Source of the DNA: Chloroflexota bacterium
GTDB lineage: Bacteria > Chloroflexota > Dehalococcoidia > Lucifugimonadales > HRBIN23
Length of the DNA: 64,000 nucleotides
Assembly (NCBI GenBank): GCA_016210325.1
Contig: JACQUK010000112.1
Coordinates: forward strand, 598-64,597
Direction of reading: 5' to 3'
The number at the start of each line of letters is the position of its first letter. The first letter of the stretch is position 1. The notes beneath the pieces were generated by a model. It was not told where the DNA came from and ran no database searches. It saw only the letters and a program-made list of their open reading frames with translations. Shown in pieces: positions 84 through 47,200 of the stretch. Both the position numbers and the translations under genes were made by a program.

Positions 84-629
84 ATGGTCCCGTGGACTAC
101 ATCCCTTGCTGGGAGGCTCGCTGTGGCGGTGACGGTGCTGGTGCTCTATGACGCCTCCGGGCCGCAAATCACCAGGCTGGCGGAGGCCATCGCGGCGGGG
201 GTCAAAGAGGCGTCTGGTGCCTCGGCACGGTTACGGCCTGCCACCGAAGCCCGCCGCGAAGACCTGCTGGACTGCGATGCCCTGGTGCTAGGCTCCCCTA
301 ACTGGAGCGGGGTGACTGGCCGTCTGAAGACCTGGCTGGACGAGCAGGGTGACCTGTGGGAGGAAGGGTCCCTGGCCGGCAAGTCAGGGGCCGTCTTCAC
401 CACCGGCCGGGGGCAGCACAGCGGCCTGGAGTTCACCCTCCTCGTCCTCATGCACTGGCTCCTGGCTAACGGCCTCATCATTGTGGGGCTGCCGTGGAGC
501 CATCGGATGCGCACATCAGGCTCCTACTATGGCGCCAGCGCAGCGGGTGAGGTCACCGAGGATGACGTGGCGCAGGCCCGCGCCCTGGGGCGGCGAGTAG
601 CCGAGGTTGCAGCGCGCCTTAAGGGCTGA
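84..629 (+). CDS. Flavodoxin-like fold NAD(P)H:quinone oxidoreductase (WrbA-like)
   Basis: The ORF-track protein has the WrbA/flavodoxin-like layout (VLVLYDASGPQITRLAEAIAAGV ... ALVLGSPNWSG ... GAVFTTGRGQHSG). GTG at 123 preceded by GGGAGG (111-116) is a plausible alternative start. Confidence 0.6.
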   Translation: MVPWTTSLAGRLAVAVTVLVLYDASGPQITRLAEAIAAGVKEASGASARLRPATEARREDLLDCDALVLGSPNWSGVTGRLKTWLDEQGDLWEEGSLAGKSGAVFTTGRGQHSGLEFTLLVLMHWLLANGLIIVGLPWSHRMRTSGSYYGASAAGEVTEDDVAQARALGRRVAEVAARLKG

Positions 630-691: not shown

Positions 692-1141
692 GTGCCGGAA
701 GTGGGCGAGCCTGCGCCTGACTTTACTATTGCGACTACCCAGGGCACCCTCCGGCTGGCCGACCTGCGGGGAAAGAAAGTGGTTCTGGCCTTCTACCAGG
801 AGGACCTGACGCCGGGGTGAACGCAGGAGCTCTCCTCCCTGCGGGAGGAGTACGCGACGGTCCAGCAGGCCGGCGCCCAGGTGGTGGCCATCAGCTCGGA
901 CAGCCTGGAGTCGCACCGACGGTTCTGCGAGGCGCTGGGTGGCTGCCTCTTCCCAGTGGCCAGCGACCCCGACCTGACAGTCGCTCGTCTCTACGGTACC
1001 GTGGACGAGGCTGCCAGGCGCAGCCGCCGCGCTGTTTTCGTGCTGGACGAGGCCGGGATGGTCATCTTGAAGGTACCCTGGTACCAGCCAGGCAACATGG
1101 GGCAGTTCATGGAGGTTTTTCAGGCCCTGGGTGTAATGTAG
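692..1141 (+). CDS. Bcp/PrxQ-type peroxiredoxin (AhpC/TSA family) with in-frame TGA (818-820) at the peroxidatic Cys position; candidate selenoprotein
   Basis: GTG 692 follows the RBS GGGGGGAGG (677-685). My hand translation is VPEVGEPAPDFTIATTQGTLRLADLRGKKVVLAFYQEDLTPG-TGA-TQELSSLREEY, which continues in frame into ORF-track entry 881-1141. TPG[C]T is the peroxiredoxin active-site block. Confidence 0.75.
832..850 (+). promoter_or_regulatory. Putative bacterial SECIS hairpin downstream of TGA 818-820
   Basis: Perfect 8-bp stem CTCCTCCC (832-839) / GGGAGGAG (843-850) with loop TGC. It begins 11 nt after the TGA. Confidence 0.45.
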
Positions 1142-1205: not shown

Positions 1206-2057
1206 ATGGTCCGCGCTATTGATATGCACGTGCATGCCCCGCTCGAGCCTGGGACCGAGGAGCCCTACACCTACCGGTCCATCAAGGGCTTCTTCCGGCC
1301 CCGGACCATGCCTAGCAACCCGGAGGAGATGGCCGCCCTCTATCAGGAGCTGGACATCCTGGGTGTCATCCTGACCATCGATACGGAGACGGTCACCGGC
1401 CAGAGGCCCTCCAGCAATGACTGGATCGCCTCCATCGTGCAGAGGTGGCCCCACCAGTTCGTGGGGTTTGCCTCGGTGGACCCGTGGAAGGGCAAGCAGG
1501 CTGTACAGGAGCTTGAGCGGTGCGTCAAGGAGTTGGGGCTGCGAGGGCTTAAGGTCCACCCGGTCGAAGGCAAGTTTGAGCTGAACGACCCCCGCTTCTA
1601 TCCGCTGTGGGAGAAGTGCGCCGAGCTGCGGGTGCCGCTGCTGTTCCACTCGGGGTTCGCCGCCTCTGGCGCAGGGCAACCTGGAGGCGATGGCTACAAG
1701 CTCAAGTACTCGGCACCCATCCCCTACGTTGACGATGTGGCAGCGGACTTCCCTGAACTGACCATCATCATGGCCCATCCCGCCTGGCCCTGGGTCGAGG
1801 AGCAGATTGCCGTTGTCCTGCACAAGGCCAACGTGTTCATGGACTTCTCTGGCTGGTCGCCACGTTTCATCCCGAAGGCCCTGGTGCAGGAGGCCAACAC
1901 CCGGCTCAAGGACAAGGTGCTCTTCGGGTCAGACTACCCGTTCCTCCCCCCTGACCGCTGGCTGAAGGAGTTCGAGCAGATGGACATGCGTGAGGAGGTC
2001 CGCCCGCGGTTCCTGAAGGAGAACGCCAAGCGAGCGTTGGGCCTGGATGTGGACTGA
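1206..2057 (+). CDS. Amidohydrolase-family metal-dependent hydrolase (amidohydrolase_2/ACMSD-like TIM barrel)
   Basis: ATG 1206 follows GAGGAGGAG. N-terminal IDMHVH metal motif. Later motifs include LKVHP, LLFHSG, and DYPF near the C-terminus. Confidence 0.75.
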   Translation: MVRAIDMHVHAPLEPGTEEPYTYRSIKGFFRPRTMPSNPEEMAALYQELDILGVILTIDTETVTGQRPSSNDWIASIVQRWPHQFVGFASVDPWKGKQAVQELERCVKELGLRGLKVHPVEGKFELNDPRFYPLWEKCAELRVPLLFHSGFAASGAGQPGGDGYKLKYSAPIPYVDDVAADFPELTIIMAHPAWPWVEEQIAVVLHKANVFMDFSGWSPRFIPKALVQEANTRLKDKVLFGSDYPFLPPDRWLKEFEQMDMREEVRPRFLKENAKRALGLDVD

Positions 2058-2770: not shown

Positions 2771-2940
2771 GCTAGTGTCCCGTCTCCGAAATACGTTTAT
2801 GAATTGTCATTGCGAGGAATCCCGATGTAATCGGGAGAGGTGGGGTCCACTCCTCCTCCAGACGCCGTGGTGAGCCTGCCGAACCATTGCCACGGCCCTC
2901 GTTCGTCGGGCTCGGCGAACTTCGGGGACACCGCGCTAGC
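2771..2940. repeat. MITE-like repeat, family B (GCTAGTGTCCC ... GGGGACACC..GCTAGC termini)
   Basis: Shares GTGTCCCGTCTCCGAAATACGTTTA, TGTCATTGCGAGGA and GGCGAACTTCGGGGACACC blocks with 17675-17783 and, in inverted orientation, with 7142-7204. Its right end overlaps the thyX stop codon. Confidence 0.75.
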
Positions 2941-4339
2941 GGTCGCGGCGCTGGAAGTAGCGGAACAGGGCAGGGTACTGGGCCTGGCACAGGGCTAGCG
3001 CCTTCTCCATGACCTCGCGGATGGAGAAGTGGGCCTGCGGCCCAGTGCGGAGCTTGAAGAGGTGGAAGCACTCCCGCAGGTCCATCCGCGCCAGGACGCG
3101 GCGACGGTGCGCGTGGGTGACCACGTACTGGGCTACCCGAGGGTTGAACTCCGCCAGGCGGTGGAAGGCAGCTTCGGCGGGCGTGGTCCCTTCCTGGAAG
3201 AGGGTGGCCAGCCCAGCCTCCTGAAGGAGCGTTGGCACCGCTGCCCCGTGGACCACGGTCAGGGGCTGCGGAAGGTACGTCTGCATGCGGTGGCGCTTGA
3301 ACTCCCGGTAGGCGCCGTAGTCCATCACCAGCTCCAGGGTCACCGAGGCCAGCTCCAGCTCCCTTGGCGGTGCGTCGAAGGGGCCGAGTCCGGCGAGGGC
3401 CGCATCCAGGACGGCATCTCGTTGGCTGGCCGACATCCCTTGTACCTGTTCCCAGACCTGGGCATAGGAGCGGTGGGAGTGCCGGTACAGCAGGGCGGCA
3501 ACGATGCGCTGCTCCGCCTGGGGATCGGCATCTATCAGGCGGACCTCGCTGGTGGGTTCCAAGAAGGGCGACTCTGCGGTGTCGCTGAGCTGGGCCAGCC
3601 TGCCGCGGCCTCCCACCAGGTAAGGGCTCTCATTGGCGTACTTGATGAGGGTGGGGGCGGTCTTGCGTCCCTCCTCTTTCAGGAGTTGGCCAACCTCTCG
3701 CTCCTCCTGGAGGTCCGAGGAGAGGAGCTTGGTGATGGCGTGCTCCAGGGAGCGGGCGTTCATCGTGACGCCCACATTGGTCAGGGTAGCTGCGGGGAGA
3801 ATGAAGCGGCACGAGTCCACCGCCTCGCGGCGCAGGCGCAGGTCGTAGGCGGTGTCGCGTTCCCCCTCTCGTCGGGGGCGGACCCTTTGCAGGTGGGCTT
3901 TGCACCCCTCCACAAGCTGGAGGTAGGTGGCGAAGAGGCGGTCACAGGTGACCTTGAAGCTGGCTTGAAGGTCTGGTTGGGCCTCCAGCTCTGGCGGCAG
4001 GTAGTAGTACCCCGGCTCCAGCACCTGGTACCGCGTGGACTTCTCGGTATAGGCAGCCAGGCGGTTGTCCTCCAGGGCATCACAGGCCAGGCGCGAGATG
4101 TTCTCCACCGCCATGTGCAGCACCGCGTGCTCGGCCACCGACGCATGGCCATAGCCCACCACCCACCGCTCGTGGAAGTCCGCCGCCTTCTCGGTGCTCA
4201 CCCGCTGAGCGGTCTGGTCGAAGGGCTGTGGCTGGCGAGACGTCATGGCGAAGACCACCGCCAGTTGCTCTTGGGACAGCTTCCGAGGGTCCAACGGGTA
4301 GATGCGGCGGGGGAAAGCGACCCCGGCCCGGTCTGTCAT
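2936..4339 (-). CDS. thyX: FAD-dependent thymidylate synthase (ThyX) family protein, tandem two-domain form
   Basis: The N-terminal half has GYGHASVAEH and DNRLAAYTEKSTRY plus CRFILPAATLTN..NARSLEH. The C-terminal half has EFKRHRMQT (RHR motif) and MDLRECFHLFKLRTGPQAHFSIRE. At 467 aa it is about twice a canonical ThyX. Confidence 0.65.
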   Translation of the reverse strand: MTDRAGVAFPRRIYPLDPRKLSQEQLAVVFAMTSRQPQPFDQTAQRVSTEKAADFHERWVVGYGHASVAEHAVLHMAVENISRLACDALEDNRLAAYTEKSTRYQVLEPGYYYLPPELEAQPDLQASFKVTCDRLFATYLQLVEGCKAHLQRVRPRREGERDTAYDLRLRREAVDSCRFILPAATLTNVGVTMNARSLEHAITKLLSSDLQEEREVGQLLKEEGRKTAPTLIKYANESPYLVGGRGRLAQLSDTAESPFLEPTSEVRLIDADPQAEQRIVAALLYRHSHRSYAQVWEQVQGMSASQRDAVLDAALAGLGPFDAPPRELELASVTLELVMDYGAYREFKRHRMQTYLPQPLTVVHGAAVPTLLQEAGLATLFQEGTTPAEAAFHRLAEFNPRVAQYVVTHAHRRRVLARMDLRECFHLFKLRTGPQAHFSIREVMEKALALCQAQYPALFRYFQRRDR

Positions 4340-7214: not shown

Positions 7215-8435
7215 ATGGACCAACTGAAGCTGTACTTACTGATTTCCGTCGCAGCCGGGGTGTTGCTGCTGGCAGGTTGCTTTTGGCGTGGTGGAACGCC
7301 GCGGGTAATTCCTCAGCATACCCCAACCTCGGAGTCCTTGACTGAGCGGGAAAAGGACTGGGCTGATAGGGTCTTGCCGCTGGGCAACTGGCGCACGGAC
7401 ATCTCGCGCCGCACGGTCCCGCTGTGGGAGGTCCAGTACCTGGGCCTTCGCCGCAACGCCATTCCGCCGCTCTATCCGAACATGGTCAAGCTGGAGAGTG
7501 TCGGCGAAGCAGACGTATCCCTGGACCCAATGGAGCCCGTTCAGGTCTTTGAGCACCGAGGCGACGCCAGGGCTTACCCCCTGCGCATTCTCATCTGGCA
7601 TGAGGTGGTCAACGACACGGTAGGGGAGCTGCCTGTTGCCGTCACCTACTGACCACTCTGCAATACGGCCACCGTGTTTGGCCGCCGCGCCAATGGAAAG
7701 GTGCTGACCTTTGGGGTCAGCGGCATGCTTCGCCAGAGCAACCTGGTCATGTGGGACAGCGAGACCGAGTCCTGGTGGCAGCAGGGCACCTTCAATGCCA
7801 TCGTAGGAGAGATGGCGGGCACCGGGCTGGAGGTGGTGCCTTCCGCCGTGGTCTCTTGGCAGGACTTCAAGGCGGCCCACCCTGACGGCCGCGTGCTGTC
7901 CCGGCGCTCATTCCCTGAGTACGAAGGACAAGGGCTCTACGGCCTGAACCCCTACCTTGGCTATGATACCGACGCCAGCCCCTTCTTGTTTGAAGGCCCG
8001 GTGGACACCCGCCTTCCGGCTATGGAGCGAGTAGTGGGGGTCCAAATTGGCGGAAGGACTGTCGCCTACCCCTATCAGGCCCTGGCCCAGCGGGGTGTGG
8101 TCTACGACACTCTGGGGGACCGGGAGATCGTGGTGCTTTACAAGGGCGACACTAGGTCACCAGTGGACGCCGGCCAGGTTTCCGCCGGTAGAGAGGTTGG
8201 CACCGCCTCGGTCTTCAGCCCTATGGTGGACGGACGGAAGCTGACTCTCACTGCTCGCAAGGACGGCCTGTTTGAAGACCGGGAAACCGGGACGGTATGG
8301 GACATCTTTGGCTTTGCCCTGGAGGGCGGGCTGAAAGGTCGGCGCCTCATCCCCGTCATCAGCTCCCCGAGCTTCTGGTTCTACTGGGCGGCTGCCCACC
8401 CAGACACCGGGGTCCTCGGCTTTGAAAACCGCTAG
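7215..8435 (+). CDS. DUF3179-family lipoprotein with in-frame TGA (7650-7652) replacing the first Cys of the CPLC motif; candidate selenoprotein
   Basis: ATG 7215 follows GGAGGGGGG. Signal peptide with an LLLAGC lipobox. ORF-track entries 6888-7652 and 7674-8435 share one frame and are separated only by the TGA. The context is PVAVTY-TGA-PLCNTATVFGRR..FGVSGMLRQSNLVMWDSETESWWQQ. Confidence 0.7.
7666..7684 (+). promoter_or_regulatory. Putative bacterial SECIS hairpin downstream of TGA 7650-7652
   Basis: 6-bp stem CGGCCA (7666-7671) / TGGCCG (7679-7684) with a 7-nt loop CCGTGTT. It begins 13 nt after the TGA. Confidence 0.4.
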
Positions 8436-26840: not shown

Positions 26841-27687
26841 TGCCGCTGATCAGGCCGGCGCTCTGAAAGCCGGGACGGTTGCCGCCCTTCTCCTGGACGT
26901 GTACCGCCGCCTGCTGGCCGAGTACGGCCCCCAGGGTTGGTGGCCCGGCGACTCGCCATTCGAGGTGTGCGTAGGAGCGGTCCTGACACAGGCAGCGGCC
27001 TGGGGCAACGTGGAGAAAGCCATCCACGCGCTCAAGGCGGCGGAGGTCTTCTCGCCGCAGGCCCTGGATGCCCTGCCAGAGGGGACGCTGGCCCGGCTCA
27101 TTCGCCCCTCCGGTTACTTCAACGCCAAAGCCAGGAAGCTCAAGGCATTCGTCGCCCACCTGCGGGAGCGGTATGGCTACCACCTGGACGCGATGCTAGC
27201 GCAGGATGCCCAGACCTTGCGGCAGGAGCTGCTTTCTCTCTACGGCATCGGCGAGGAGACGGCGGACGACATTGTGCTGTATGCGGCGGGCAAGTCTGTC
27301 TTCGTCATTGACGCCTATACCCGGCGCATCGTGGAGCGGCTGGGCTTGGCCCCCGAGATGCAAAGCTACCAGGGCTATCAGGGGCTCTTCATGCAGCACC
27401 TCCCGCCCGATGCAGGCCTGTTCAATGAGTACCATGCCCTGCTCGTGCGGCACGGCAAGGGGGTGTGCCAACCGGCGCCGCGGTGCGAGACCTGCTGCCT
27501 GGTGGCCGTCTGTGCCACAGGGAGGCAGCGCCGGGAACCTGGAGCGCCACTCGCTGAAGCAGGGGACCTCAGGGGCGCGCCACTTCTCGAGGCAGCCAGC
27601 ACAGGAGGAAGGCAACCAACGAAAAGCCGGCGGCCAGGAAAAAGGCCGACTCCAGGGAGCCGGTCAAGTCCAGCAGGCGACCGCTAA
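26806..27687 (+). CDS. Endonuclease III-like HhH-GPD base-excision DNA repair protein with a 4Fe-4S Cys cluster
   Basis: WWPGDSPFEVCVGAVLTQAAAW, LYGIGEETADDIVLYA and CQPAPRCETCCLVAVC. A low-complexity C-terminal tail overlaps the convergent MFS gene. Confidence 0.7.
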   Translation: MAAVPDSPPTTDAADQAGALKAGTVAALLLDVYRRLLAEYGPQGWWPGDSPFEVCVGAVLTQAAAWGNVEKAIHALKAAEVFSPQALDALPEGTLARLIRPSGYFNAKARKLKAFVAHLRERYGYHLDAMLAQDAQTLRQELLSLYGIGEETADDIVLYAAGKSVFVIDAYTRRIVERLGLAPEMQSYQGYQGLFMQHLPPDAGLFNEYHALLVRHGKGVCQPAPRCETCCLVAVCATGRQRREPGAPLAEAGDLRGAPLLEAASTGGRQPTKSRRPGKRPTPGSRSSPAGDR

Positions 27688-29379: not shown

Positions 29380-29928
29380 GCGGCAGCGTTTTGGGTTCTA
29401 CTTGCCGGATTCATTAAGGCAAGTAGGCGCTGTTCGGGCCACCAGAAAGAGCGGCCAGGCCCCCGAGGCTGAAAAGAGAAGTGGATAGCGGGCTAAGCCG
29501 GTTGAGGGCCTTGGTGCAAGTAGGCCGACTTCTGGGAACAGCGCAAGGCTCAGCGGTCCCGAAACCTTGAGCGGGGGGATGTTCTGCTGGCTGCTGAAAG
29601 AAGTCAGAAAGGGCTGCTCGCTGTAGGCAAGGGCCGGTGCCGCTCATGCTGGGTAAGACGGGGACACAGCTATCGTCGAGTCGTGGCGGCCGCTCTGGAG
29701 CTATCGTCGTCTCATTTCCCTAGCACCTCTCGTGGAGGAACGCGGAGGCCTGGCCTCTCCTGTACTCCGCCGAGAGCGCCCAGGACCACTGAAGGCGGCC
29801 CGGTTGAACACGGCTCACTGTGCTATCCCCTCGCCCAGGGTGTAGGAGCCTGCGTGGTGTGAAAGGCCTAATGGTGATGGACACCCCGCGCGGTACCGGA
29901 AGAAGCCCGCTCCCTGGGAGCGTGTGAG
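29380..29928 (+). promoter_or_regulatory. Long (about 550 nt) putatively structured 5' leader of giant gene 1
   Basis: Perfect 9-bp hairpin CTACTTGCC / GGCAAGTAG (29398-29426). Long-range 9-bp pairing GCGCTGTTC (29427-35) / GAACAGCGC (29536-44). Direct repeat AGCTATCGTCG at about 29669 and 29699. No convincing ORF. Confidence 0.3.
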
Positions 29929-32900
29929 TTGTTGTGGAAAGTACTTAGCGCGAAAAGCCAGGTGACGCTGGGCCTCCTGGTGGCACTGAGTGTTGTCGGT
30001 GCGTTGCTTCTCCTGTCTCGCTCGGCACAGGCGTTGCGCCTCACCGTAGACAACCTGCCTGGCTCCGTCTCCAGCGGCAACCTTCTGGACTTCGACCTCA
30101 CGGCCGAGTTCGAGGCTGGCGACCTCGTCCCCTTCCAGGAGTTCCGTCTGGACATCCTGGGTCCTAGCCCCATCATTGCACGCTTCCGCTTCGATGGTAC
30201 GGTCCTGGTCAAAGACCCTGCTGTCGTCTCGATCACCAGTGTGCCGACGCCCTGTTTTACCTTTGGCTATGGGTACCGTTTCGCTCAGACACCGGACGAC
30301 AACGGTAACGGGAAGCCGCCCTTTGGGATACCTGGTGCTGGGGAGGACAACCTCCACAGGGAAAGCTTTGGCTACGGCTTTGGGTTTGGCTACGGCTATG
30401 GTTACGGGTATTCGCCGGTCCCACCGTGTTCGGTTAAGTTCCACGTGGTCGTAGACACCAGTGTAGGCCCGATGGAGCCGGGTGACTACGAGGTGCGTTT
30501 CAGTTGGGCTACAGGCATGCCCAACAAGCCCACGTTTGATGCTGCCCCTGGCCACTTTACTATTGTGGGTGGGGTCCTCACGGCCGATTTTGAAAACGTG
30601 CCTGACCGCGGGGTCGCGCCGCTGGACGTGCAGTTCACGGACAGGTCAGTGCCCGTGGGACAGATCACCGATTGGGCCTGGACCTTCTTCGAGGACCTCA
30701 ATGGCAACAACGTCCCCGATCCTGGCGAGGTCCTGGGCCTGAGCACTCTCCAGGACCCCCTGATGCACTTCGACCAGGGCGGCGACATTTCGGTCCGCCT
30801 GCGCGTCAGCAACGGGCCGGTCACTGACACCGTCATCCACATCAACGCTGTGCGTATCCTTGAACTGGCCGACATCCTGGCCAACGGTTCCAGCGCTCCC
30901 GTCACCGTGGCCGCTGGCGATACCGTCAACTTCACGGGCATCACCCGGGGCGCCGTCACCGCCTACTCCTGGGACCTAGACGGCGACGGGATTGCGGATA
31001 GCACTGATGCCAGCCCGTCCCATGTGTACACCCAGGCCGGCACCTATGACGTCAGCCTGAGAGTCCTTGGCTTCGATGGTGTGCTGACTGACACACTGGT
31101 GAAGGCTGGCTTCGTGAACGTCAACCCGGGCCAGCTTACCGAGGTCGTCGTTACGCCGCCGGCCGCGACAACTCAGGTAGCGGGCGCGGGAGTGCAGTTC
31201 AGCGCCCAAGCGCGCGACCAGTTTGGCAACGTGTTCCCGCCTGGTGTCCTGCCCCTGGCCTGGAGCCTTGACGAGGCAGACACTGGCGGGGCCGCTGTGG
31301 ACCAGACAGGGTTCTTTGCCCCGGGCACCGGGGCGCGAGTCCTCACGGTGCGGGCGACGGCAACCCAGAATGGCGTGGAGCGGTCCGGCACGGCCCGGGT
31401 CACTGTGGAGCCGGGGCCGCTGGACCGGGTGGATGTGACGCCGAATCCCGCCGTTGTGCCCGTGCAGGGCCAGCAGCAGTTTGCCGCCGCAGGCTTTGAC
31501 GCCTTCAACAACCCTATCCCTGGCCTGGCCTTCGCCTGGGAACTGGTGAACGGCCCGCCGGATGGGGCCCTGGACCAGAGCGGTCTCTTCACGGCCGGCA
31601 CTACGTCGGGGACCTTCAACAACACCGTCCAGGCAACGGCCACCTACAAGGGTTCCACAAGGTCCGGTGCCGCCACGGTGATTATCCCGGCGGGGCCGCT
31701 GTCCAGAGTGGTAGTGACACCCCCTGCCGCAGTGACTGAGGTAGCCGGAGCGCAGGTGCAGTTCACGGCCAGGGCTGAAGACGAGCTTGGCAACCCGCTG
31801 GACCTGCCTTTCTTCTGGGAGATTGTCGAGGCGGACCGGGGTGGTGCCAGCATAGACCAGGCTGGTAGGTTCACGCCGGGCACCGGGGCGCGAGTCCTCA
31901 CAGTGCGCGCGACGGCGACGCAGGATGGTGTGGTGCGGTCGGGCACGGCCCAGGTCACCGTGGAGCCGGGGCCGCTGGACCAGGTCACCGTAACCCCCGA
32001 CCCCGTGTCTCTGCGTATCAACGAACAGCGGCAGTTCGCCGCGGCCGGGTCCGATGCCTTTGGCAACCCTATACCTGGCCTGGCCTTCGCCTGGGCGCTA
32101 GTGAACGGCCCCCCTGATGGGTCGCTAGACCAGACTGGACTGTTCACGGCTGGCACGACGGTGGGGACCTTCAACAATACGGTCCGGGCTATGGCCACTT
32201 ACAAGGGGTCAACCAAGTCCGACGCTGCCACGGTGACCGTCCTGCCTGGGCCGCTGGACCACGTGGTGATTGACCCCAAGGTCAAGACACTACGGGTCCG
32301 GGAGACCCACCTGTTTACGGCGCAGGCCTTCGACCAGGCCAATAACCCCATCCAGGGGCTGGTGCCGCAGTGGACTGGCCTGGCTGGTGGCACGGTGGAC
32401 CAGAATGGGCTCTTCACCGCCGGCACAGTGGCGGGGACCTTCGACCCGGCCGTGCAGGTCTGCATGACCCAGAATGGGACCACGAAGTGCGACACCGCCA
32501 AGGTTGTCGTGCAGCCGGGCCCACTCGTCCAGGTAGTCGTCACCCCTGACCCTGGTGAGACCGATGTGCTTGGACAGATCCAGTTCTCAGCCCAGGGCAA
32601 GGACCAGTTTGGCAACGTCATCCAGGAGGGCCTAGCGCCCTTCCAGTGGTCCGTGGTGGGGAGCCCGGTACCGGGCACCATTGACGGGAACACTGGCCTG
32701 TTCACTGCCGGACAGGTGGCAGGCTTCTTCCTAGACGCCATCCGGGCCCAGACCCAGGGGGCGAGCGGGGGACCGGTGGCTGGAACCGCTGACGTGGTCA
32801 TCAGGGCAGGCCGGCTGACCACCCTGGATGTCATGCCCGATGACGCCATCGTGCCACTGCTTGGCACCAACCAGTTCGTGGCAGTGGCCCGTGACCAGTT

Positions 32901-35900
32901 CGGCAACCTGTTTGGGCCTGAACTGACCATCGTATGGGAGATCCTGGAGCCTGATAGCGACACTGTGCTACAGCCGGTGGAGCCAGGAAACCCACTGCTC
33001 CAGCAGTTCATGGTGGGGACCAAGGCAGGTACTGTCCACGTTCGGGCTACTGCCACCAAGGGTGCTGACGTCCTGTCTGACACCAGCACGGTGACCATAC
33101 CGCCGGACCCACTGGACGGAGTGGTCTTCGAGCCTGACCCACTAGCGGTGAGTGTGAACCAACAGGCGCAGGTGACCGGCAACCCCGTTGACCAGTACGG
33201 CAACGTGATCCCCGGCATCCCGGTCACCCTGTTTGGCGAGAACCTTCCATCTGACGGTATCTTCGACCCCGCGACGGGCATCTTCACCGCCGGTTCGCAG
33301 ATGGGCCTGTTCCCGAAGGCGTTCAAGGGTGAGGCGACGGAACACGGTTGGCGTGGCGCGCTACAGGGCGCGGCTGGCCTCAATGCCGTGTTCTTCACTG
33401 ACGCTTCCACAGGCTGGGCTGTGGGCAACGGCGGCCTCATCCTGCACACGGAGGACGGCGGCCGGAGCTGGGGTGTGCAGTCCAGCGGCACCACAGAAGA
33501 CCTGCATGGCGTCTCGTTTGCCAATGCCTCAGAGGGGCACGCCGTAGGCGCCAACGGCACCATCCTGACGACGGTGGACGGCGGCGAACGCTGGATGCCG
33601 CAGGCGCCTCCCGCTGGGATGGTGGACTCCTTCTTTGATGTGTTCTTCACTGACGCCTCCACCGGCGTCGCGGTGGGGACTAACGGCGCCATCATCACTA
33701 CCCAGGACGGTGGGGCCACCTGGCAGGCCCAGCAGAGCGGCGTGACGACAACGCTGCGGGGCGTCTACCTGACGGACTCCTCGACCGGCTACGCCGTGGG
33801 CGACAACGGGACCTTTGTGAAGACAACCCAGGGCGGCGCCGAATGGAAGCCTGAAGACTTGCCTGAGGGCATACCCGCCGACTCCTTCTTCGATGTCTTC
33901 TTCACCGATTCTTCGACCGGGTGGGTAGTAGGGGCCAACGGCGCCATCATCCACACCGAGGATGGTGGGGCCACCTGGCAGGCCCAGCAGAGCGGAGTGA
34001 ACGGGACGCTGCGGGGCGTGCACATGACCGATGCCTCCACCGGCTGGGCGGTGGGCGACAACGGGACGGTTCTGACGACTGTGAACGGTGGTGCCAATTG
34101 GACGCCAGAGGCGCCGCCGCCCGGTGTGGCTGCCGAATCGTTCTTCGATGTGTTCTTCACTGATGCCTCAACAGGCTGGGCCGTGGGCAGCCGGATCACC
34201 ATCATTGCCCGGGCCTCCCCGTGGGCCATCCAGCTCACGGCGATTGACCTGCGTGGTGCAGACTGCGTCAACGGGCTGATCTGCTGGGCCGTCGGCCTCA
34301 AGGGCCAGGCCCTCCACACCACGGACGGTGGCGTGAGCTTCTCGGCTCTGAACACGGGGACCGAAGATGACCTGCTGGCAGTGGACTTTGTGGACGCACA
34401 GCACGGTTGGGCTGTGGGCGCCAATGGGACAGTCCTTAAGGCCATTGATGGCGGCGCAACCTGGCAGCTTCAGGCCAGCAACACGGCCGTGACGCTGCGC
34501 GGGGTGAGCTTCGTGGACGCCCAGCGTGGCTGGGTTGTGGGCGAGGGTGGCACGGTCCTGGCCACGGCCGACGGCGGTGCGACTTGGGCGCCTCAGGGAA
34601 GCGGGATTGGCAGCCCGCTGAACGGTGTCTACTTTGTGGACGCTCAAAAGGGCTGGGTGGTTGGGGATGGCGGCGTCATCCTGGCGACGGCGAATGGTGG
34701 CAACACCTGGACAACGCAAGTCAGTGGCACGGGCCAGGCGCTGCGGGCGGTCCAGATGGTCTCTGCCACCAAGGGCTGGGCTGTGGGCGCCAGCGGCACG
34801 ATCTTGGCAACTGCCGATGGCGGCAGCAACTGGGCGGCCCAGGCCAGCGGCACAGTGGCAGGCCTCAACGACCTGTTCTTCCTGGATGACACTACAGGGT
34901 GGGCTGTGGGCACTGGTGGCACGGTGCTGCACACGGGCGATGGCCTGGCTTGGGCGGCGCAGGCCAGTGGCACCACAGCAGACCTCTACGCGGTGACCGG
35001 TGGCGGGCTGAGCCCGGCTGTGTACCTCTTCGCTTTTGGCGATAGCAGCACTGCGCTGCGGTATGGCCGCTTTGCCTGGGGCTATGGGGACCTGAGGGTT
35101 CTGGGCGAGTTGGCGCGGGTGGTGGTGACGCCGGCGGAGGCGACCACGGAGGCGGGTGGCGCGGCGGTCCAGTTCTCGGCGCAAGGCCAGGACGCGGGCG
35201 GCAACGTCTTGGACGTGCCCATCGTGTGGAGCATAGACGAGGCAGACGCTGGCGGGTCCCAAGTTGACCAGACTGGTCTGTTCACGCCGGGGACCAAGGC
35301 GGGGACGTACACCGTCCGGGCCACTGCTACCCAGGACGACATTGTGAAGTCCGGTACCGCCCGGGCCACGGTGAACCCGGGGCCGCTGGCCGAAGTGGTG
35401 GTAACGCCGGCGGAGGCAACCACGGAGGCGGGTGGCGCAGCGGTCCAGTTCTCGGCGCAGGCCAAGGACGCTTTTGGCAACGTTCTGGGTGTGCCTCTCG
35501 TCTGGAGCATTGACGAGGCGGACACCGGCGGAGCCAGCGTTGACCAGAACGGGCTGTTCACGCCAGGGGCGGGTGCCCGGGTGCTGACTGTGCGCGCTGA
35601 GGCGAGCCAGAACGGCATCGTCAGGTCTGGCACTGCCCAGGTGCGAGTGGAGCCGGGCCCGTTGGCCCGCGTGGACGTGACCCCCAACCCGGTCACGCTG
35701 CGGGTCCAGGGACAGCAGCAGTTCGGCGCAGCCGGTTTCGACGCTCTCAACAACCCGATACCGGGCCTGGCGTTTACTTGGCTGCTGGTGAATGGGCCGG
35801 CGGATGGGTCCTTGAGCGCGGCGGGGCTGTTGCATGCGGGGACCACCCCAGGGACGTTTACGAACACGGTGCAGGCGACGGCGACCTTCAAGGGTGCCAC

Positions 35901-38900
35901 AGTATCTGGTGCTGCCACGGTCAACGTGCTGGCGGGGCTGTTGAACCAGGTTGTGGTGACACCGGCAGAGGCGACCACGGAAGTCTCTGGCGCAACGGTC
36001 CAGTTCTCGGCGCAGGCCAGGGATGCCTTTGGTAATGCCATCAACCTACCCATTGCCTGGAGCATTGACGAAGCAGACGCTGGTGGGGCCAGCATTGGCC
36101 AGACTGGTCTATTCACGCCGGGGACGGGTGCTCGGCTGCTGACGGTGCGGGCCACGGCTGCTGAGGAGGGCCTGGTGCGGTCGGGCACGGCCCGAGTCAC
36201 GGTGGAACCGGGGGCTCTGAGGCAGGTGGTGGTGACGCCCAACCCGGCTAGTGTACCCACCTTGGGGCAGCAGCAGTTTGGGGCAGTGGGCTTCGACCGC
36301 TTTGGGAACCCGATTGCGGGGCTGGTCTTCGGCTGGGCGGTGGTGAATGGACCGCCCGATGGGTTTATTGACGGGGCGGGGCTGTTCCGCGGCGGCGTCA
36401 CCGCAGGCACTTTTGTGAACACGGTGCAGGCAACGGCCACCTTCAAGGGTGCAACGGTGTCCGGCTTTGCAACTGTGACCATCCTGCCTGGGCCGCTGGC
36501 GCGGGTGGTGGTAACGCCGGCGCAGGCGACGACGGAGGTGGGTGGCGCAGCGGTCCAGTTTGCTGCACGGGCCGAAGACGAGCACGGGAACGCCATCAAC
36601 CTACCCATCTCGTGGAGCATTGACGAGGCCGACCGGGGTGGGGCGGCTGTGGACCACGCTGGTCTGTTCACGCCGGGGACCAAGGCGGGGGCCTTCACCG
36701 TCCGCGCCGCCGCGTCGCAGGGTGGCGTGGAGCGGTCGGGGACGGCGCAGGTCACGGTGGAGCCGGGGCGGTTGGCGCGGGTGGTGGTGAGTCCGGACCC
36801 GGCGGCGGTTGCTCTTCAGGGGCAGCAGCAGTTTGCGGCGGCAGGCTTTGATGCCTTCAACAACGCCATCCCTGGCCTGGTATTTGGCTGGGCGCTGGTA
36901 AACGGGCCGGCGGACGGGTCCTTGAGTGGAGCGGGGCTGTTCCAGGCGGGGACGACGGCGGGGACCTTCGCGGGCACAGTGCAGGCGACGGCCACCTACA
37001 AGGGGGCCACGATTTCTGGGGTGGCGACGGTGACTGTGCTGCCTGGGCCGCTGGCGCGGGTGGTGGTGACGCCGGCGCAGGCGCCGGCAGAGGCTGGTGG
37101 CGCAGCGGTGCAGTTCACGGGGCGGGCTGAAGACGAGTATGGAAACGTTCTGAACCTGCCTATGTCTTGGAGCATTGACGAAGCGGACGCTGGCGGGGCC
37201 GGCATTGACCAGACTGGTCTGTTCACGCCGGGGACGGGCGCCCGAGTGCTGACAGTACGGGCTACGGCGACCCAGGGGAACGTGGTCCAGTCTGGGACGG
37301 CGCAGGTCACGGTGGAGCCCGGGCCACTGGCGCGGGTGGTGGTGAGTCCGGACCCGGCGGTAGTGGCCCTGGAGGGGCAGCAGCAGTTTGCGGCGGCAGG
37401 ATTTGATGCCTTCAACAACCCGATTGCGGGGCTGGCCTTTGGCTGGGCCTTGGTGAACGGGCCGGCGGACGGGTCCTTGAGTGGAACGGGGCTGTTCCAG
37501 GCGGGGACCACCCCGGGGACGTTCGCGGACACGGTGGAGGCGACGGCGACCTACAAGGGTGCCCCGGTGTCCGGGGCAGCCACAGTGATTGTGCCGGTGG
37601 GTGCGCTGGCGCGGGTGATCGTGACGCCGGCAGAGGCCACCACGGAGGTCGGCGGGGCGGCGGTCCAGTTCTCGGCACGAGTAGAAGACGACCTTGGGAA
37701 CGAGGTCCTGGGTGCCTTGGTAGTCTGGAGCATTGATGAGGCAGACCGTGGTGGGGCCCAGATTGACCAGACTGGTCTGTTCACGCCGGGGACGGGCGCT
37801 CGGGCACTGACGGTGCGGGCCACGGCGACCAAGGACAACTTGGCGGGGTCGGGGACGGCGCGGGTGACGGTGGAGCCTGGGCCGCTGGCGCGGGTGGTGG
37901 TGAGTCCGGACCCGGCGGTAGTGGCCCTGGAGGGGCAGCAGCAGTTTGCGGCGGCAGGATTTGACGCCTTCAACAACCCGATTGCGGGACTGGTGTTTGG
38001 CTGGGCGTTGGTGAACGGGCCGGCGGACGGGTCCTTGAGTGGAGCGGGGCTGTTCCAGGCTGGGACGACGGCGGGGACCTTTGCGGACACAGTGCAGGCG
38101 ACGGCGACGTACAAGGGTGCCCAGGTGTCCGGGGATGCCACCGTCACCGTCCTGACGAGTGCTCTAGCACGGGTGGTGGTGACGCCGTCGCAGGCGACGA
38201 CGGAGGTGGGTGGCGCAGCGGTGCAGTTCACGGGGCGGGCTGAAGACGAGCATGGGAACGTTCTGGGTCTGCCTATGTCTTGGAGCATTGACGAGGCCGA
38301 CCGGGGCGGAGCGAGCATAGACCAGACTGGTCTGTTCACGCCGGGGACGGGTGCCCGAGTGCTGACGGTGCGGGCGACGGCAACCCAGAACGGCGTGGAG
38401 CGGTCCGGGACGGCGCAGGTGACGGTGGAGCCTGGGCCGCTGGCACGGGTGGATGTGACGCCGAACCCGGCGGTAGTGGCCCTGGAGGGGCAGCAGCAGT
38501 TTGCGGCGGCAGGATTTGACGCCTTCAACAACCCGATTGCGGGGCTGGCCTTTGGCTGGGCCTTGGTGAACGGGCCGGCGGACGGGTCCTTGAGCGCAGC
38601 GGGGCTGTTCCAGGCGGGCACCACCCCGGGGACGTTCGCGGACACGGTACAGGCGGAGGCGACCTACAAGGGAGCCACGGTGTCCGGGGCTGCGACGGTG
38701 ATTGTGCCGGTGGGTGCGCTGGTGCGGGTGATCGTGACGCCGGCGCAGGCGACGACGGCGGTTGGTGGCGCTACCGTCCAGTTCTCGGGGCGGGCCGAGG
38801 ATGCCTTCGGTAACCTTCTGAACCTGGCCATGACGTGGACAATTGATGAGCCAGACACTGGCGGAGCGAGCATAGACCAGACTGGTCTGTTCACGCCGGG

Positions 38901-41900
38901 GACGGGCGCCCGAGTGCTGACGGTGCGAGCCTCGGTGACCCAGGGTGACGTAAGTCGGTCGGGGACGGCGCGGGCCACGGTGGAGCCGGGGCCGTTGGCG
39001 CAGGTGGTAGTGACGCCGAACCCGGCGACGGTGCCCATCCTTGGACAGCAGCAGTTTGCGGCGGCAGGATTTGATGCCTTCAACAACCCCATCCCTGGCC
39101 TGCCCTTTGGCTGGGACTTGGTGGACGGGCCGGCGGACGGGTCCTTGAGCCCAGCGGGCCTGTTCCAGGCTGGGACAACGGCGGGGACCTTTGTGGACAC
39201 CGTGAGGGCGACGGCGACCTACAAGGGTGCGACGGTCTCAGGTCGTGCGACCGTGAGCATCCCGGTCGGACCGCTGCATCGAGTGGTCGTGACACCGCCC
39301 GAAGGCGTCACACAGGTAGCCGGCGCGGCGGTCCAATTCTCGGCGCAGGTGCAGGATGCCTTCGGCAACGTGCTGGACCTGTCCATGGAGTGGAGCATTG
39401 ATGAGGCAAACACGGGCGGGGCCAGCATTGACCAGACAGGCAGGTTCACGCCAGGGACCAGGGCGGGGACCTTCACCGTGCGGGCCACGGCGGTCCAGGA
39501 CGGCTTGGCCTCTGGTACCGCGCTGGTGATGGTGCGGCCGGGGCCGCTGGCTGCTGTGACGATGTTCATCAACGAGGACCTCAACGGCAACGGCGCTCTG
39601 GACGCTGGCGAAGACTTGAACGGGAACGCTGCTCTGGACACGAGGCTGTCCTTAGACCCGGCTGTTGTGGACATGACTCAACAGGTCCGATTCTTCGCCG
39701 AGTCCACCGATGCCTTTGGCAACGTGAAGACCAACGGAGTGGCTTTGGCGTGGAACCTCACTGATGCCCGCGCCGGCACAGTGGACCAGAGTGGGCGTTT
39801 CGTGGCAGGCCTGGTGGCGGGGGCCTTCCCAGGCGTCGTCAGGGTGGGCGCTACTGAGGGTGCCCTGGGCGTGTCCGATACAAATGGTGTTACCGTGGTG
39901 ACGGCGGTGGTGGCCGTGCTACCGCAGAAGGACGGCTTCCAGGACACCGTCATTGAGGTGCCGGTCACGTTCATCAACGTGCCGGCCCCTGGCCTGGGGT
40001 CCTACCGTATCCGCGTCCGCATCACGGACCGCAACGTAGCCCGGCTGGCTGGCGTAAGCCAGGCAGATGTGCTGGTGCCCGGCGATGCGCCCTTCACGAG
40101 CTTTGGCACGTTCATCGTGCTGGATGACCATACGGTTGACTTCGGTGGCAGCATCCCTGGCCCTGTGGGACCCACCGGGACAGTCCGCGTCGCGTCGGTC
40201 CGTATCAGGATGGCCGGTGCCCCTGGGAGCGGGACCGCTGTGGTAGTGTTCGATGTGATGGCCAACGATGCTCAGGGTGGGGCCACCACTGTCTTGCGGG
40301 CCGACGGGCACCTCACCGTCGCCACGGCGGACTTCGCTGCGGCCCCGGCTCCGGCCAAGGGCCAGGCACCGCTGGATGTGCAGTTGACCGACCATAGCAC
40401 CGGAAACCCCTACGCTTGGGGCTGGAGCATTTACCAGGACAACGGCGATGAGTTGTTCAACGCCGCTTCGGACGTGCTGCTGAAGTGGACGAAGGCGGGT
40501 GATACTTGGGTCGAGGACGCGGCCGGTGTCACCAGTATTCCGGACCAGAACCCCAAGGTGCGCTTCGGGCGTGGCGGTGACTTCCACGTGGCCCTGACGG
40601 TAACGATTGACCCCAGCACCACCACGGTCGTGAAGCCGCTGCTGGTCAGGACGCTGCTGCCGAGCTTCACGCTGGCGCCTAGCCTTGGCACTGCACCGCT
40701 GGGAGTCCAGATTACGGATAGCACCCAGGGCACGGTGAGTGGCTGGGACTACGAGATCTACCGCGAGGCCACCGGCAACAACTCCCTGGACATCGGCGGC
40801 GACACGCTGGTGGCTTGGGGCAAGGTGGACACCGACAGTAATGGCACGCCTGACACATGGGTCGAAGGCGCTGGCGCTGTGACCAGCATCCCGGAGCGGA
40901 ATCCGAGGGTGCGGTTCGACAAGGGCGGCATCTACCACGTTCGGTCGGTGGTGACTGGACCGGCAGGTACTTTTGCCACCACCCATCAGGCGGCGGTCAC
41001 GGTGCTCCGGGCCGACTTCTCGGCGGCGCTAGCCGCTGGGCAGGCTGGCACCGTTGACCCAGCCACGGGTCGCGTCGAGGGGGTCCTGACGCGCGATGAC
41101 CCAGAGTTCGACGTGCAGTTCACCCAGCGGGCCGAGGGGCCAGCAGTGGCCTATGCCTGGGACTTCAATTTGCAGCCCAGTGAGCTGGACGCCGGTGGCA
41201 GCTACATCGGCAGCTTCGATAGCAGTGACCCGAACCCGACCTACCCCTACACCTCGGCGGGCAGCTACACCGTGCTGCTGCGGGTCACGGGTGGTGGGCT
41301 TGATGACAGGGAGATCAAGGCGGGCATTGTCCTGGTGCACCAGGCGCCGTTGGCGGACTTCACCAATGACCCGGCAACACCGCCGCGAGGCCAGGCGCCG
41401 CTGACGGTGCAACTGCAAGACCTGTCCCAGGGCGACAACCCCAGGGCCTTCGACTACGAGGTCCGTCTGGACGATGGCGATGGGGCCCTCGATGCTGCCC
41501 AGGACACGCTGCTCACGTGGAGCAAGGTTGACACCAACAGCGACGGCACTCCTGACACCTGGGTCGAGGACGCCGCGGGCGTTACCAGCATCCCCGACCA
41601 GGACCCCAGGGTCCGGTTCGACCGGGGCGGTGACTTCCACGTGACGCAGATGGTGACCAACGCCTTCGGTGTCGACTCGGTGGTGCGGGCCCTGTTCGTC
41701 CGGGTGCTCAAGATTAACTTCAGTGGCACGGACTTCGAGGACAAGGTGGCGTACGCCCTGCCGGCGAGCCCGCTCCAGCTCATTATCCCCAGCCAGGATG
41801 ATCCGAACACACTGGCCGTCGTTGAGAACCGCGTCCAGTTCGCAGGGGTCATCTCAGGCACGGTCACCAGCGTCGCCTGGGACCTGAACGGCGACGGGGT

Positions 41901-44169: not shown

Positions 44170-44205
44170 CCCGCGCCAGAATAATATGGAGTAATCTATC
44201 GTATT

Positions 44206-47200
44206 ATGCGCTTTTCGTCGAAGGGAGCAGCCCCTGACTGGCATCTGAAACTCGTGCTGGCGGCCCTCCTGGTAGTGGGAGGGCTGCTGGCCGTTTCAGG
44301 GGCAGTCCTCGCCATCGCTCCGGTGGCTGATTTCATCAACGACCCGGCCACGCCGCGCCTTGGGGCCTTCCCGGCGCAGGGTACGTTCGATGTTAGCCTG
44401 CTGGACACCTCGGACAATGCCCCTACCTCCTGGGACTGGCGTGTCTATCTGGACAATGGCGATGGGGTCCTGAACGACGCCGATGGGGATGGCACGCCGG
44501 ACCCTGGCACTGACACAGCGGTAACGTGGCGCCTGGATGGCGCCAGCTTCGTACAGGACGCAGCGGGGGCCATTACCGTCATCCAGGGCAACACCGATAC
44601 TGAGCGGGACCCGTTCCTGAGCTTCAGCCGCGGTGGCGACTACCACGTGCGGCTGGTGGCCACCGGGGATGGCTCCTCGCCTCCGAAGGTCCAGAACAAC
44701 TTCATCCGCATCCTCCGGACAGCTTTTGCGGCGAACAGCAACGACGCTGGCGCCACGTGCAGCAACGTCTCCACCACCTCGGGCGCCACCTGCGACGGCA
44801 CCTCGGTGCCCTTCACGGTGTCCTTTGTCGGTACGTCAGAGGGGACAATCACCGCCAGGGCCTGGGACTTCAACGGCGACGGTGTCGTGGACTCCAACGT
44901 CCAGGCCCCGGCCCCGTTCGTCTACGCGGAGCCGGGCACCTTCACCGTCACCGAGACAACCAGCGGACCCGCGGGCACCCACACAGCCCGGCTGACCGTC
45001 CGGGTGTTCCAGATCCCCAGCGCCTCCTTTAGCGGGACGCCCAGGTCCGGCGTGGTGAACGCCCAGGGACAGTTCACCGTCAACTTCGTGGACGAGTCCA
45101 CGGGTAACCCTTCCCGCTGGGTCTGGGACTTCGGCGACGGCTCCAGTCTAAATACCCAGGACCCCGCACAGCGAAACCCGTCCCACGTCTACCAGCGCGG
45201 TGGCGTGTTCACGGCCACCCTGACGGTTAGCAACCCCACCCTGCCCAACGGTGACACGGAGGCGAAGGCGGACTATGTCCGCGCCCTCCAGGCGGACTTT
45301 GGCACCCGGCCAGGCGCCGGACAACCTGTGACGTTTGCCGCTATCACCAGGACCATCCCACCGGGCCAAGTCTGCTCTACCGGGCAGGCGGGCGCCGATG
45401 TGATTTTCGTTGACCAGAGCCTGGGGAGGCCGGCTGCGGGGGTCCAGTGGGACTGGGATTTTGGGGATGGCAGTGGACTTATCACCAACGTGGAGGCCCA
45501 GGGGCTGGAGCCGACCCACTGCTACACCAGCAGCGGGACCTTCAATGCCACGCTGAGGCTTTCCACGGGCATTGGCACCCATGCAAAGGCCCGCGCTGGG
45601 CTGGTGACGGTGGCCAAGACCCCGCTGGCGGAGTTCCTGGCAGCGCCCACCAGCGGGGGAGTGCTCACCCGAGTGCTGGCCAACGGCGCCACCGAGGTCA
45701 CCCCGGTCCAGATCGCCCTGGTAGACCAGTCCGCCAACGTGCCAACGGGCTGGTCGTGGCGCATCTACGTAGACGGCAACGCTGACCAGGTGCTGAACGA
45801 CGCCGACGGGGATGGGGTGCCAGATGCGGGTACAGACACGCTGGTGACCTGGCGGCAGGACGGCAACACCTTTGTCCAAGACGTGGCTGGGGCCATCAGC
45901 GCGGTTGCGGGCACCACCGACACCGAGCGCAACCCGGTGCTGAAGTTCAACCGGGGCGGCGGCTATCACGTACGTCTGGTGGCTTCCAACCTGGCAGGCG
46001 CTTCAGCGCCCAGGGTGCGGAACCGGTACATCCGCGTCCTGAGGTCGGACTTTGAGGCCCGCTCTGCGGGAGGGGCCTTTGGAACGGCCCCGCTGACGGT
46101 CAACGTTGGGGCTACGGTTGACTTCCGGATCACCACCGAGGGGACCGTGACCTCCCGGGAGTGGGATGTCAACAACGATGGGATCACGGATGGCACCGGC
46201 ACGGCCCTAAGCTTCCAGTACGGGACCGGCGGGACCTTCACGGTGGTGTTTCGCTCCATCGGCCCGGCTGGCACCAGCCAGATGGTGCGGGAAGGATTTG
46301 TCATTGCTCGTCCCCCGCCAACGGCTGACTTCATGGCCAACCCTCTGACACCGGCGCGGCGCCCCTTTGAAACGGGCTTAATGATTGAGGGCAAGCCTGC
46401 CGTGGGCCTGGTGGATCTCTCCACCGAGGCCCCTGACCGCTGGCAGTGGACGGTCTATGAGGACACCAATAGCAACGGTGTGTTGGACGAGGGCGCGGAT
46501 ACTGTCGTGCGGTGGACGCAGGCGGGGGCCAACTTCACGCAGGACCCTCAGGGCGCCCTTGGCGCCATCGAGGGGACCGACGCCAACGTCTACCAGAACC
46601 CCATCCTGCTGTTCGGCCGCGGCGGCGACTACCACGTGAAGCTGGTGGCCAGTAACGTGGTAGGTGCGTCTCAGCCCAGGCCGCGCCCTCTCTTCGTGCG
46701 CATCATCAAGGCCCAGTTTGCTGCCTTGAGCAACACCGCAGGGGCCCAGTGTCCCGCTGTGGACGGCTCTTGCCGTGGAGGCGTCCCCCTCGTCGTCCGC
46801 TTCATTGCCAACGAGGATGCCAACGGGAACAAACTCCTTGACGCTGGCGAGGACCTGAACGCCAACGGGGCGCTGGATGTGCTGGCGGAGGGCACAGTCA
46901 CCAGCTATGCGTGGGACCTGAACGGTGATGGTCTAACCGACAGCACCGCTGCGAACCCGACCTTCAACTACACGACGCCCAGTAACTTCAATGTTACGTT
47001 GCGAGTGACTGGCCCCGCCGGCAGCAGCACCGTGCTCAAGCAGGCGCTGGTCAGGACCTTCCAGCCGGTCGCGGCGGACCTCTCGGGCACGCCCAGGGCG
47101 GTGGCTTCAGGGAACACCGTGCAGTTCACTGACCTCAGCGTGGGCAACCCCGACACCTGGCAGTGGGCCTTCTTCCAGGACGAGGACGGGGATGGCGTGC

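Follow-up and report, generated by a model that had tools for sequence, protein, structure and literature searches.

A peroxiredoxin gene with an in-frame UGA at its peroxidatic position, very probably encoding selenocysteine, in a groundwater Chloroflexota genome

Results

Gene structure and annotation of the locus

The stretch of DNA analysed here, 64,000 nucleotides in length and referred to below as the window, contains on its forward strand a reading frame at 692–1141 which starts with GTG (692–694), ends with TAG (1139–1141) and is interrupted by a single internal stop, a TGA at 818–820. A Shine-Dalgarno-like GGAGG, as read from the sequence, is located at 681–685, 6 nt ahead of the GTG. 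Translation of the frame gives VPEVGEPAPDFTIATTQGTLRLADLRGKKVVLAFYQEDLTPG, followed by the TGA and then by TQELSSL...ALGVM up to the terminal stop, amounting to 149 residues with the TGA decoded, and the preliminary description of this frame as open save for one codon is thereby borne out. The gene is preceded by one for an FMN-reductase or WrbA-like flavoprotein (123–629, forward strand) and followed by an amidohydrolase gene (1206–2057, forward strand), and a second gene with an in-frame TGA, belonging to the DUF3179 family (7215–8435, forward strand), is found 6.8 kb from it.

In the mechanical list of open reading frames the gene is cut into two pieces, 692–820 (42 aa) and 881–1141 (86 aa), the second of these being the shortened product to which attention had been drawn beforehand. 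The corresponding GenBank entry is a 100-aa "redoxin domain-containing protein" (MBI4337647.1), neighboured by the amidohydrolase MBI4337648.1 and also by ThyX (MBI4337650.1). Because the codon for the catalytic residue has the form of a stop, the peroxiredoxin is shortened by automatic annotation; the corrected product of the MBI4337647.1 locus would be a selenoenzyme of 149 residues and not a 100-aa fragment.

Protein family, fold and active site

With Cys put in for the TGA, the product of 149 residues matches the Pfam family AhpC-TSA (PF00578) with 116.9 bits (cut-off 26, E = 7e-34) over positions 1–121 of the 124 of the profile, a match that spans the TGA and agrees with the full-length peroxiredoxin proposed earlier. 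The best sequence match in the PDB is the BCP-type protein 5enu from Burkholderia ambifaria (E = 1e-21), in which the Cys of TPGCT stands opposite the TGA. Searching a large protein database gave 341 homologues; those ranking highest among the full-length proteins are 149–154 aa long, 59–64% identical, named peroxiredoxin or Bcp and derived from Chloroflexota and Dehalococcoidia MAGs. Across 29 aligned full-length homologues of the Cys type the alignment is gapless, as it also is to the solved structures, and the column at the TGA is an invariant Cys, corresponding to the peroxidatic Cys (CP) of solved peroxiredoxins; the proposal that the TGA falls exactly on this residue is thus confirmed, and the codon at 818–820 (forward strand) would specify Sec43.

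Other active-site residues are in place. Thr40 (codon 809–811), the first residue of the TxxU motif, is nearly invariant in the same alignment, in which Arg110 and Arg113 do not vary at all; Arg113 (codon 1028–1030), on the strand R-A-V-F-V-x-D, is invariant in two homologue alignments and is probably, to judge by peroxiredoxin motifs in general, the conserved active-site Arg of these enzymes. T40, U43 and R113 are thus all present and conserved, and the position of the Pro of PxxxTxxC (position -7) is taken by Gln36, a residue that varies across the subfamily, whose motif is FYxEDxTPxC. Since the subfamily lacks this canonical Pro, peroxidase activity of the read-through protein is to be expected by analogy but is not certain. 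A further characteristic of the subfamily is the C-terminal motif PWYQPGN.

Two more Cys residues are encoded past the TGA, both by TGC. Cys79 (codon 926–928), on helix alpha3, is a candidate resolving Cys located 36 residues past U43, which is presumably the same peroxidatic-to-resolving spacing as in Xanthomonas PrxQ; it is present in most, not all, members of the family, in the Sec as well as in the Cys forms. The second, Cys85 (codon 944–946), is partly conserved in the homologue alignment, and both are missing from the Sec orthologues L016 and L024.

The AlphaFold model of P0001, a Cys homologue with 64% identity, has a pLDDT of 96.6 and the standard peroxiredoxin fold, with Cys44 at the start of helix alpha2 (helix 42–53) and with Cys79 corresponding to a position within helix 73–82. 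Foldseek searches with this model gave TM values of 0.8–0.9 to BCP, Prx6 and Prx1 structures. None of the NCBIfam peroxiredoxin equivalogs reaches its cut-off with the read-through protein, the scores being 65.8 bits for PrxU (NF040737, cut-off 270), 56.1 bits for E. coli Bcp (NF006960, cut-off 140) and 61.6 bits for Deinococcus PrxQ (NF053650, cut-off 260). The protein is therefore BCP/PrxQ-like without being a member of the PrxU, Bcp or Deinococcus PrxQ equivalogs, so that the original assignment to Bcp/PrxQ stands with regard to size and fold but has to be loosened with regard to family membership and to the canonical Pro of PxxxTxxC.

Conservation of the TGA among orthologues

Species-representative genomes and metagenome contigs were scanned at the DNA level with the back-translated pattern F-Y-x-E-D-x-T-P-x-TGA-[T/S], which yielded 38 stretches in total, 25 of them peroxiredoxin genes with TGA at the peroxidatic codon. 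The species-representative (GTDB) genomes contributed 17 stretches, comprising 10 orthologues of the same subfamily, all from Chloroflexota/Dehalococcoidia MAGs, three PrxQ-type genes from Ignavibacteria and Sericytochromatia, and four chance matches, and the metagenome contigs (JGI/ENA) contributed 21, comprising 12 more orthologues and nine chance matches. This amounts to 22 orthologous loci of the same subfamily with TGA at the peroxidatic codon, most of them from Chloroflexota/Dehalococcoidia.

The frame downstream of the TGA, 106–109 codons long, is intact in all 20 of the Sec-form loci that extend to the end of the gene, and the C-terminal PWYQPGN...ALG is kept in every one of them. Sec orthologues share 50–62% identity with the window protein overall, 51–66% before the TGA and 43–62% after it, and they align to it over 106 residues past the TGA without gaps. 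Such similar identity on either side of the TGA indicates that both halves are under selection at the protein level.

The Cys homologues use TGC or TGT at the peroxidatic codon, and in a rough neighbour-joining tree the Sec and Cys forms are interleaved at at least five places, in keeping with the report that Cys has often been converted to Sec in peroxiredoxins (PMC1794560). The residues L-S-S-L/F after the Sec position are nearly always found in Sec forms and rarely in Cys forms.

A putative SECIS hairpin past the TGA

Beginning 11 nt past the TGA, the sequence CTCCTCCC-TGC-GGGAGGAG (832–850, forward strand) forms a hairpin with a perfect stem of 8 bp (5' arm 832–839, 3' arm 843–850) and a 3-nt loop, UGC (840–842), within the codons for L-S-S-L-R-E-E; its energy is −13.5 kcal/mol, G occupies the second loop position and the spacing from UGA to loop is 19 nt. 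The published bSECIS consensus consists of an apical loop of 3–9 nt, a stem of 4–16 bp, G as one of the first two loop nucleotides, a distance of 16–37 nt between UGA and loop and an energy no higher than −7.5 kcal/mol (PMC13188914, Fig. 2 legend). The hairpin satisfies four out of four bSECIS constraints of this source, and the assessment of the region past the TGA therefore agrees with the earlier suggestion of a SECIS-like structure at the right distance.

Hairpins of this quality are rare in the background. In the genes of the window, 11.5% of 16,217 in-frame codon positions precede a hairpin allowed by the bSECIS rules, and 2.1% precede one of −12 kcal/mol or better. When the same peptide was recoded synonymously with the codon usage of the window, 5.9% of the recodings passed at all and only 13 out of 3000 (0.4%) were as good as the observed hairpin, an arm of which contains the minority codons CTC, TCC and TCC. 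The fold of the whole segment 818–880 is ordinary in comparison with dinucleotide shuffles (z = −0.71), and the signal consequently lies in the specific hairpin and not in the total folding energy.

A hairpin with a loop of 3–4 nt at a spacing of 17–20 nt is shared by 16 of the 17 Sec forms but by just one of the six Cys forms for which DNA was fetched; this exception, L044, groups with the Sec form L007 as its sister in the tree. A G is present in the first two loop positions in 14 of 17 Sec forms (loops UGC, GUU, GUUC, UGA and GAAA), and the Sec orthologues that have no early loop G or only a weak stem are L007 (UUA), L024 (UUC) and L023. Under a strict scan for perfect stems, the limit of −7.5 kcal/mol is reached by only five of 18 Sec forms, several of the orthologue stems being weak, and for this reason we do not claim that all orthologues fit the consensus model. 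In-register covariation amounts to one clear compensatory pair, the closing pair, which is C-G in the window and L016 and U-A in L034 and L007; the remaining compensatory pairs require a register shift of 2 nt. On these grounds we regard a SECIS at 832–850 in the window copy as well supported, and one in the orthologue family as plausible, but not proven.

An Rfam scan of the whole 64-kb window gave no matches. This absence is treated as uninformative, on the assumption that in-ORF bacterial SECIS elements of this type are not represented among the Rfam models.

A second candidate selenoprotein gene

The DUF3179 gene has its in-frame TGA at 7650–7652, within the motif TY-U-PLC-N, that is, in a UxxC motif, and the read-through protein matches Pfam DUF3179 over positions 2–292 of 292 (E = 2.6e-93). 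Past this TGA there is no more than a marginal hairpin, which has an energy of −8.7 kcal/mol and carries its G third in the loop. DUF3179 (PF11376, UxxC/T) is among the known prokaryotic selenoprotein families (PMC13188914), so the companion case put forward together with the peroxiredoxin concerns a real TGA in a family already listed as containing selenoproteins. No other internal TGA occurs in a well-supported gene of the window, and both of these fall on redox Cys positions of known selenoprotein families.

One further junction of this type was considered as a Sec site and rejected, namely the in-frame stop-to-stop junction at 26850–26852 on the reverse strand, upstream of a pyrF-like gene. 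The OMPdecase Pfam match covers only the C-terminal part there, and the upstream translation is of low complexity, rich in Arg, Ser and Ala, and looks non-coding.

Neighbouring genes

The product of 123–629 (168 aa from a GTG start, and likewise 168 aa in Logan contigs) matches Pfam FMN_red (E = 2.9e-08) and, under the cut-off, the NCBIfam model for WrbA-type NAD(P)H:quinone oxidoreductase (E = 4e-28), and that of 1206–2057 (283 aa) matches Pfam Amidohydro_2 (E = 1.3e-51), both in agreement with the identities first given for the flanking genes. The window shares with the Sec form L007 and the Cys forms L042–L045 a WrbA-like gene directly upstream of the peroxiredoxin gene, and in L042 the two overlap by 17 nt; this conserved pairing, together with the overlap, suggests that the two genes may form an operon. 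The amidohydrolase gene is found beside the peroxiredoxin only in the identical contigs L001 and L002 and is not a conserved partner.

Discussion

Decoding of the UGA codon

It is highly probable that 692–1141 constitutes a single intact gene and encodes a 149-residue peroxiredoxin of the thiol-peroxidase type with a UGA-encoded Sec as its peroxidatic residue. The alternatives differ in whether the codon is read at all, and by what.

If UGA 818–820 is read through, the inserted residue might be something other than Sec, either by near-cognate insertion of Cys or Trp or by a lineage-specific reassignment of UGA, an explanation that we regard as very improbable. Low-level near-cognate decoding of UGA occurs in bacteria, and Sec machinery was not seen in the window: ARAGORN detected no tRNA, and hence no tRNA(Sec), in the 64-kb window or in 25 related loci, a Pfam scan of the window genes in 1–29 kb gave no SelA, SelB or SelD, and the DNA flanking the related loci contained no selA, selB or selD. 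UGA is nevertheless the ordinary terminator of 11 of the 24 confident genes in the window, which argues against a genome-wide reassignment, and read-through of a non-specific kind does not sit well with a SECIS-type hairpin at the canonical distance or with internal TGAs that are confined to the redox Cys positions of two known selenoprotein families. The phylum is moreover known to use Sec: Chloroflexi carry the Sec trait (PMC1794560), and Dehalococcoidia MAGs, with 46–49 selenoproteins, are among the most selenoprotein-rich bacteria (PMC13326102).

Somewhat less probable again is that the gene is a pseudogene, in which a recent nonsense mutation has turned the TGC or TGT of a Cys-type peroxiredoxin into TGA and the downstream frame has not decayed as yet. 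The single nucleotide by which TGA differs from the codons of the Cys homologues, the annotation of only a 100-aa fragment in GenBank and the negative scans for Sec machinery (tRNA in the 64-kb window, Pfam in 1–29 kb) would all agree with such an event. It would, however, have to have struck exactly the sole residue for which Sec/Cys exchange is known in the family (PMC13188914), and to have left in place a SECIS-type hairpin that is maintained by codon choice. The same TGA is also present in 22 diverged orthologues, with frames intact in each locus that covers the gene to its end and equal conservation on both sides; two-sided conservation is the standard criterion for Sec/Cys pairs and excludes a decaying pseudogene, and no related locus with a degraded downstream frame, such as the preliminary description had allowed for, was found. 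Judged by these comparative data, the pseudogene explanation appears to be effectively refuted.

The annotation itself amounts to a claim that the locus encodes two separate small proteins, of 42 aa and 86–100 aa, without any recoding, and this seems to us hardly tenable. It is true that in-frame starts are available, the GTG at 881 among them, and that the NCBI pipeline calls a 100-aa product, but neither fragment would contain a complete peroxiredoxin fold or the catalytic residue, residues 44–63, which lie between the TGA and the GTG at 881, are conserved with the homologues at the protein level, and the orthologues show no conserved ribosome-binding site or start.

A sequencing or assembly error at 818–820, with TGC or TGT as the true codon, can be given next to no weight even though single-base mistakes are possible in MAG assemblies, since two Logan contigs, from the separately assembled runs SRR12113390 and SRR12113401, carry the gene in the same split form and match the window at 100% identity along 561 nt with the TGA included, a repetition that disposes of the error considered in the preliminary description, and since the adjoining hairpin and the SS-L-R-EE codon pattern are those typical of Sec forms.

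Proposed mechanism and possible partner

For the Sec-encoding gene favoured here, decoding would follow the standard bacterial pathway, in which SelB with Sec-tRNA(Sec) would bind the hairpin 832–850 during translation and deliver Sec to UGA 818–820 in competition with release factor 2, allowing translation to run on to the TAG at 1139–1141. By analogy with peroxiredoxin chemistry, Thr40 and Arg113 would then activate the selenolate of U43, which would attack a hydroperoxide and be converted to a selenenic acid. This could be resolved by Cys79 of helix alpha3 as a selenenylsulfide, directly by an external thiol reductant (thioredoxin, for example), or by both. As L016 and L024 contain neither Cys79 nor Cys85, a 1-Sec mechanism must also be viable.

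The pairing with the WrbA-like gene invites a speculation which we consider improbable, namely that the WrbA-like FMN reductase and the short, Pro-less peroxiredoxin constitute a dedicated two-component peroxidase, in which the flavoprotein, in place of thioredoxin, would pass electrons from NAD(P)H to a 1-Cys/1-Sec peroxiredoxin in its selenenic or sulfenic acid state. We know of no flavoprotein-driven reductant system described for BCP-type peroxiredoxins. If such a system did exist, Sec might be favoured in it, being more easily re-reduced when there is no resolving Cys.

Significance

The locus is a new, misannotated member of a Chloroflexota-centred subfamily, and Sec peroxiredoxins with TxxU have long been known and are abundant (PMC13188914; PMC1088965). 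No new biological question is opened by it, and its value lies in the annotation, in the flag for Sec decoding and in the Sec/Cys series. Together, the peroxiredoxin and DUF3179 genes mark this groundwater Chloroflexota MAG as probably Sec-decoding, and other in-frame TGAs in it should be read accordingly. The 22 Sec orthologues that are found among Cys forms make up a compact natural series for Sec/Cys switching and for the gain and loss of a SECIS within coding sequence.

Comparison with known systems

The hairpin resembles the consensus bSECIS (bSECISearch; E. coli fdhF being the prototype) in that it is a stem-loop inside the ORF, at the canonical distance and with a small apical loop bearing a G. 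It differs from this consensus in its loop, which is UGC and not the common G[G/U], in the lack of an evident bulged U, and in the orthologues, where the loops are varied (GUU, GUUC, UGA, UUA, UUC) and the register is shifted by 2 nt.

With regard to the protein, the biochemically characterised PrxU of Eubacterium acidaminophilum is a Sec-dependent peroxiredoxin with an AhpC/TSA fold; it has approximately 230 residues and is of the typical 2-Cys/Prx1 type, in contrast with the 149 residues of the window protein, which falls outside the NF040737 equivalog. Closer in size, and similarly free of a C-terminal extension, are the BCP/PrxQ proteins (5enu; Sulfolobus Bcp1, 3drn, and Bcp4, 3hjp; Xanthomonas PrxQ, 5iiz), which are also the best structure matches (Foldseek TM 0.84–0.89, from the model of the homologue P0001). 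These have Cys where the window protein would have Sec, and the subfamily of the window lacks the Pro of PxxxTxxC and does not conserve the resolving Cys.

Another close comparison is with the Sec peroxiredoxins themselves, a class to which the preliminary description had already referred such AhpC/TSA-like proteins and which the literature documents well: peroxiredoxins (PF00578, TxxU) are included in the list of selenoprotein families (PMC13188914), 43 Sec peroxiredoxin genes of COG1225 were reported from the Sargasso Sea (PMC1088965), and Sec/Cys switching is frequent in the family, with five Cys-to-Sec events (PMC1794560). The window gene shares with this class (PF00578, TxxU; COG1225) the Pfam family, the TxxU motif, the putative peroxidatic Sec, a widespread Cys form and a hairpin just past the UGA. 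What sets it apart from the other Sec peroxiredoxins is that it belongs to a distinct subfamily, mostly from Chloroflexota, with proteins of approximately 150 aa, a C-terminal PWYQPGN and the active-site motif FYxEDxTPxU in place of FYPxDxTPGU, the canonical Pro being replaced.

Active site and gene context of the peroxiredoxin

Throughout the subfamily of the window peroxiredoxin (alignment A2, with 29 full-length homologues), the Pro of the canonical peroxiredoxin motif PxxxTxxC is absent, its place being taken in the window protein by Gln36 (codon 797-799, forward strand), and a conserved Glu-Asp pair (E37-D38) is found instead. The gene (692-1141) is directly preceded by one for a WrbA-like FMN reductase (123-629), and the same order is found in the Sec-form locus L007 and the Cys-form loci L042-L045, with the two genes overlapping by 17 nt in L042 and separated by gaps of 27-62 nt in the other loci. 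This immediate upstream position in both Sec and Cys lineages suggests that the two genes form an operon and points to a possible functional link between them.

In one Cys-form locus, L044, sister to the Sec form L007, the orthologue P0009 (1501-1953) keeps a hairpin, CCUCCU-UCA-AGGAGG, at the SECIS position, approximately 19 nt past the Cys codon. The hairpin may be the remnant of a SECIS from before Sec gave way to Cys in this gene; alternatively, it may be a SECIS precursor.

TGA as the peroxidatic codon was also found, in intact reading frames, in PrxQ-type genes with the canonical motif FYPEDDTPG-U-T (L011, L012 and L013); their hosts are Ignavibacteria (L011) and non-photosynthetic cyanobacterial relatives, Candidatus Sericytochromatia (L012 and L013).

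Other genes and in-frame TGA codons in the window

Three giant open frames follow one another on the forward strand (29878-44169, approximately 4764 codons; 44185-49326, approximately 1714 codons; and 49706-64000, more than 4765 codons and continuing past the window end), all with the high third-position GC typical of coding sequence. The 467-aa ThyX-like protein (2936-4339, reverse strand), in which the Thy1 domain is matched in two stretches, is a putative tandem-domain FAD-dependent thymidylate synthase.

Upstream of a pyrF-like (OMP decarboxylase) gene, a TGA (26850-26852, reverse strand) links one open frame to another; it was rejected as a Sec site because the part upstream of it looks non-coding. 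The DUF3179 gene (7215-8435, forward strand) carries an in-frame TGA (7650-7652) within the motif TY-U-PLC-N, and its read-through product gives a full-length Pfam match (E 2.6e-93). The hairpin 3' of this TGA (CGGCCA-CCGUGUU-UGGCCG; -8.7 kcal/mol; spacing 19 nt) has no G in its loop before the third position. DUF3179 is already listed as a selenoprotein family (UxxC/T) in PMC13188914.
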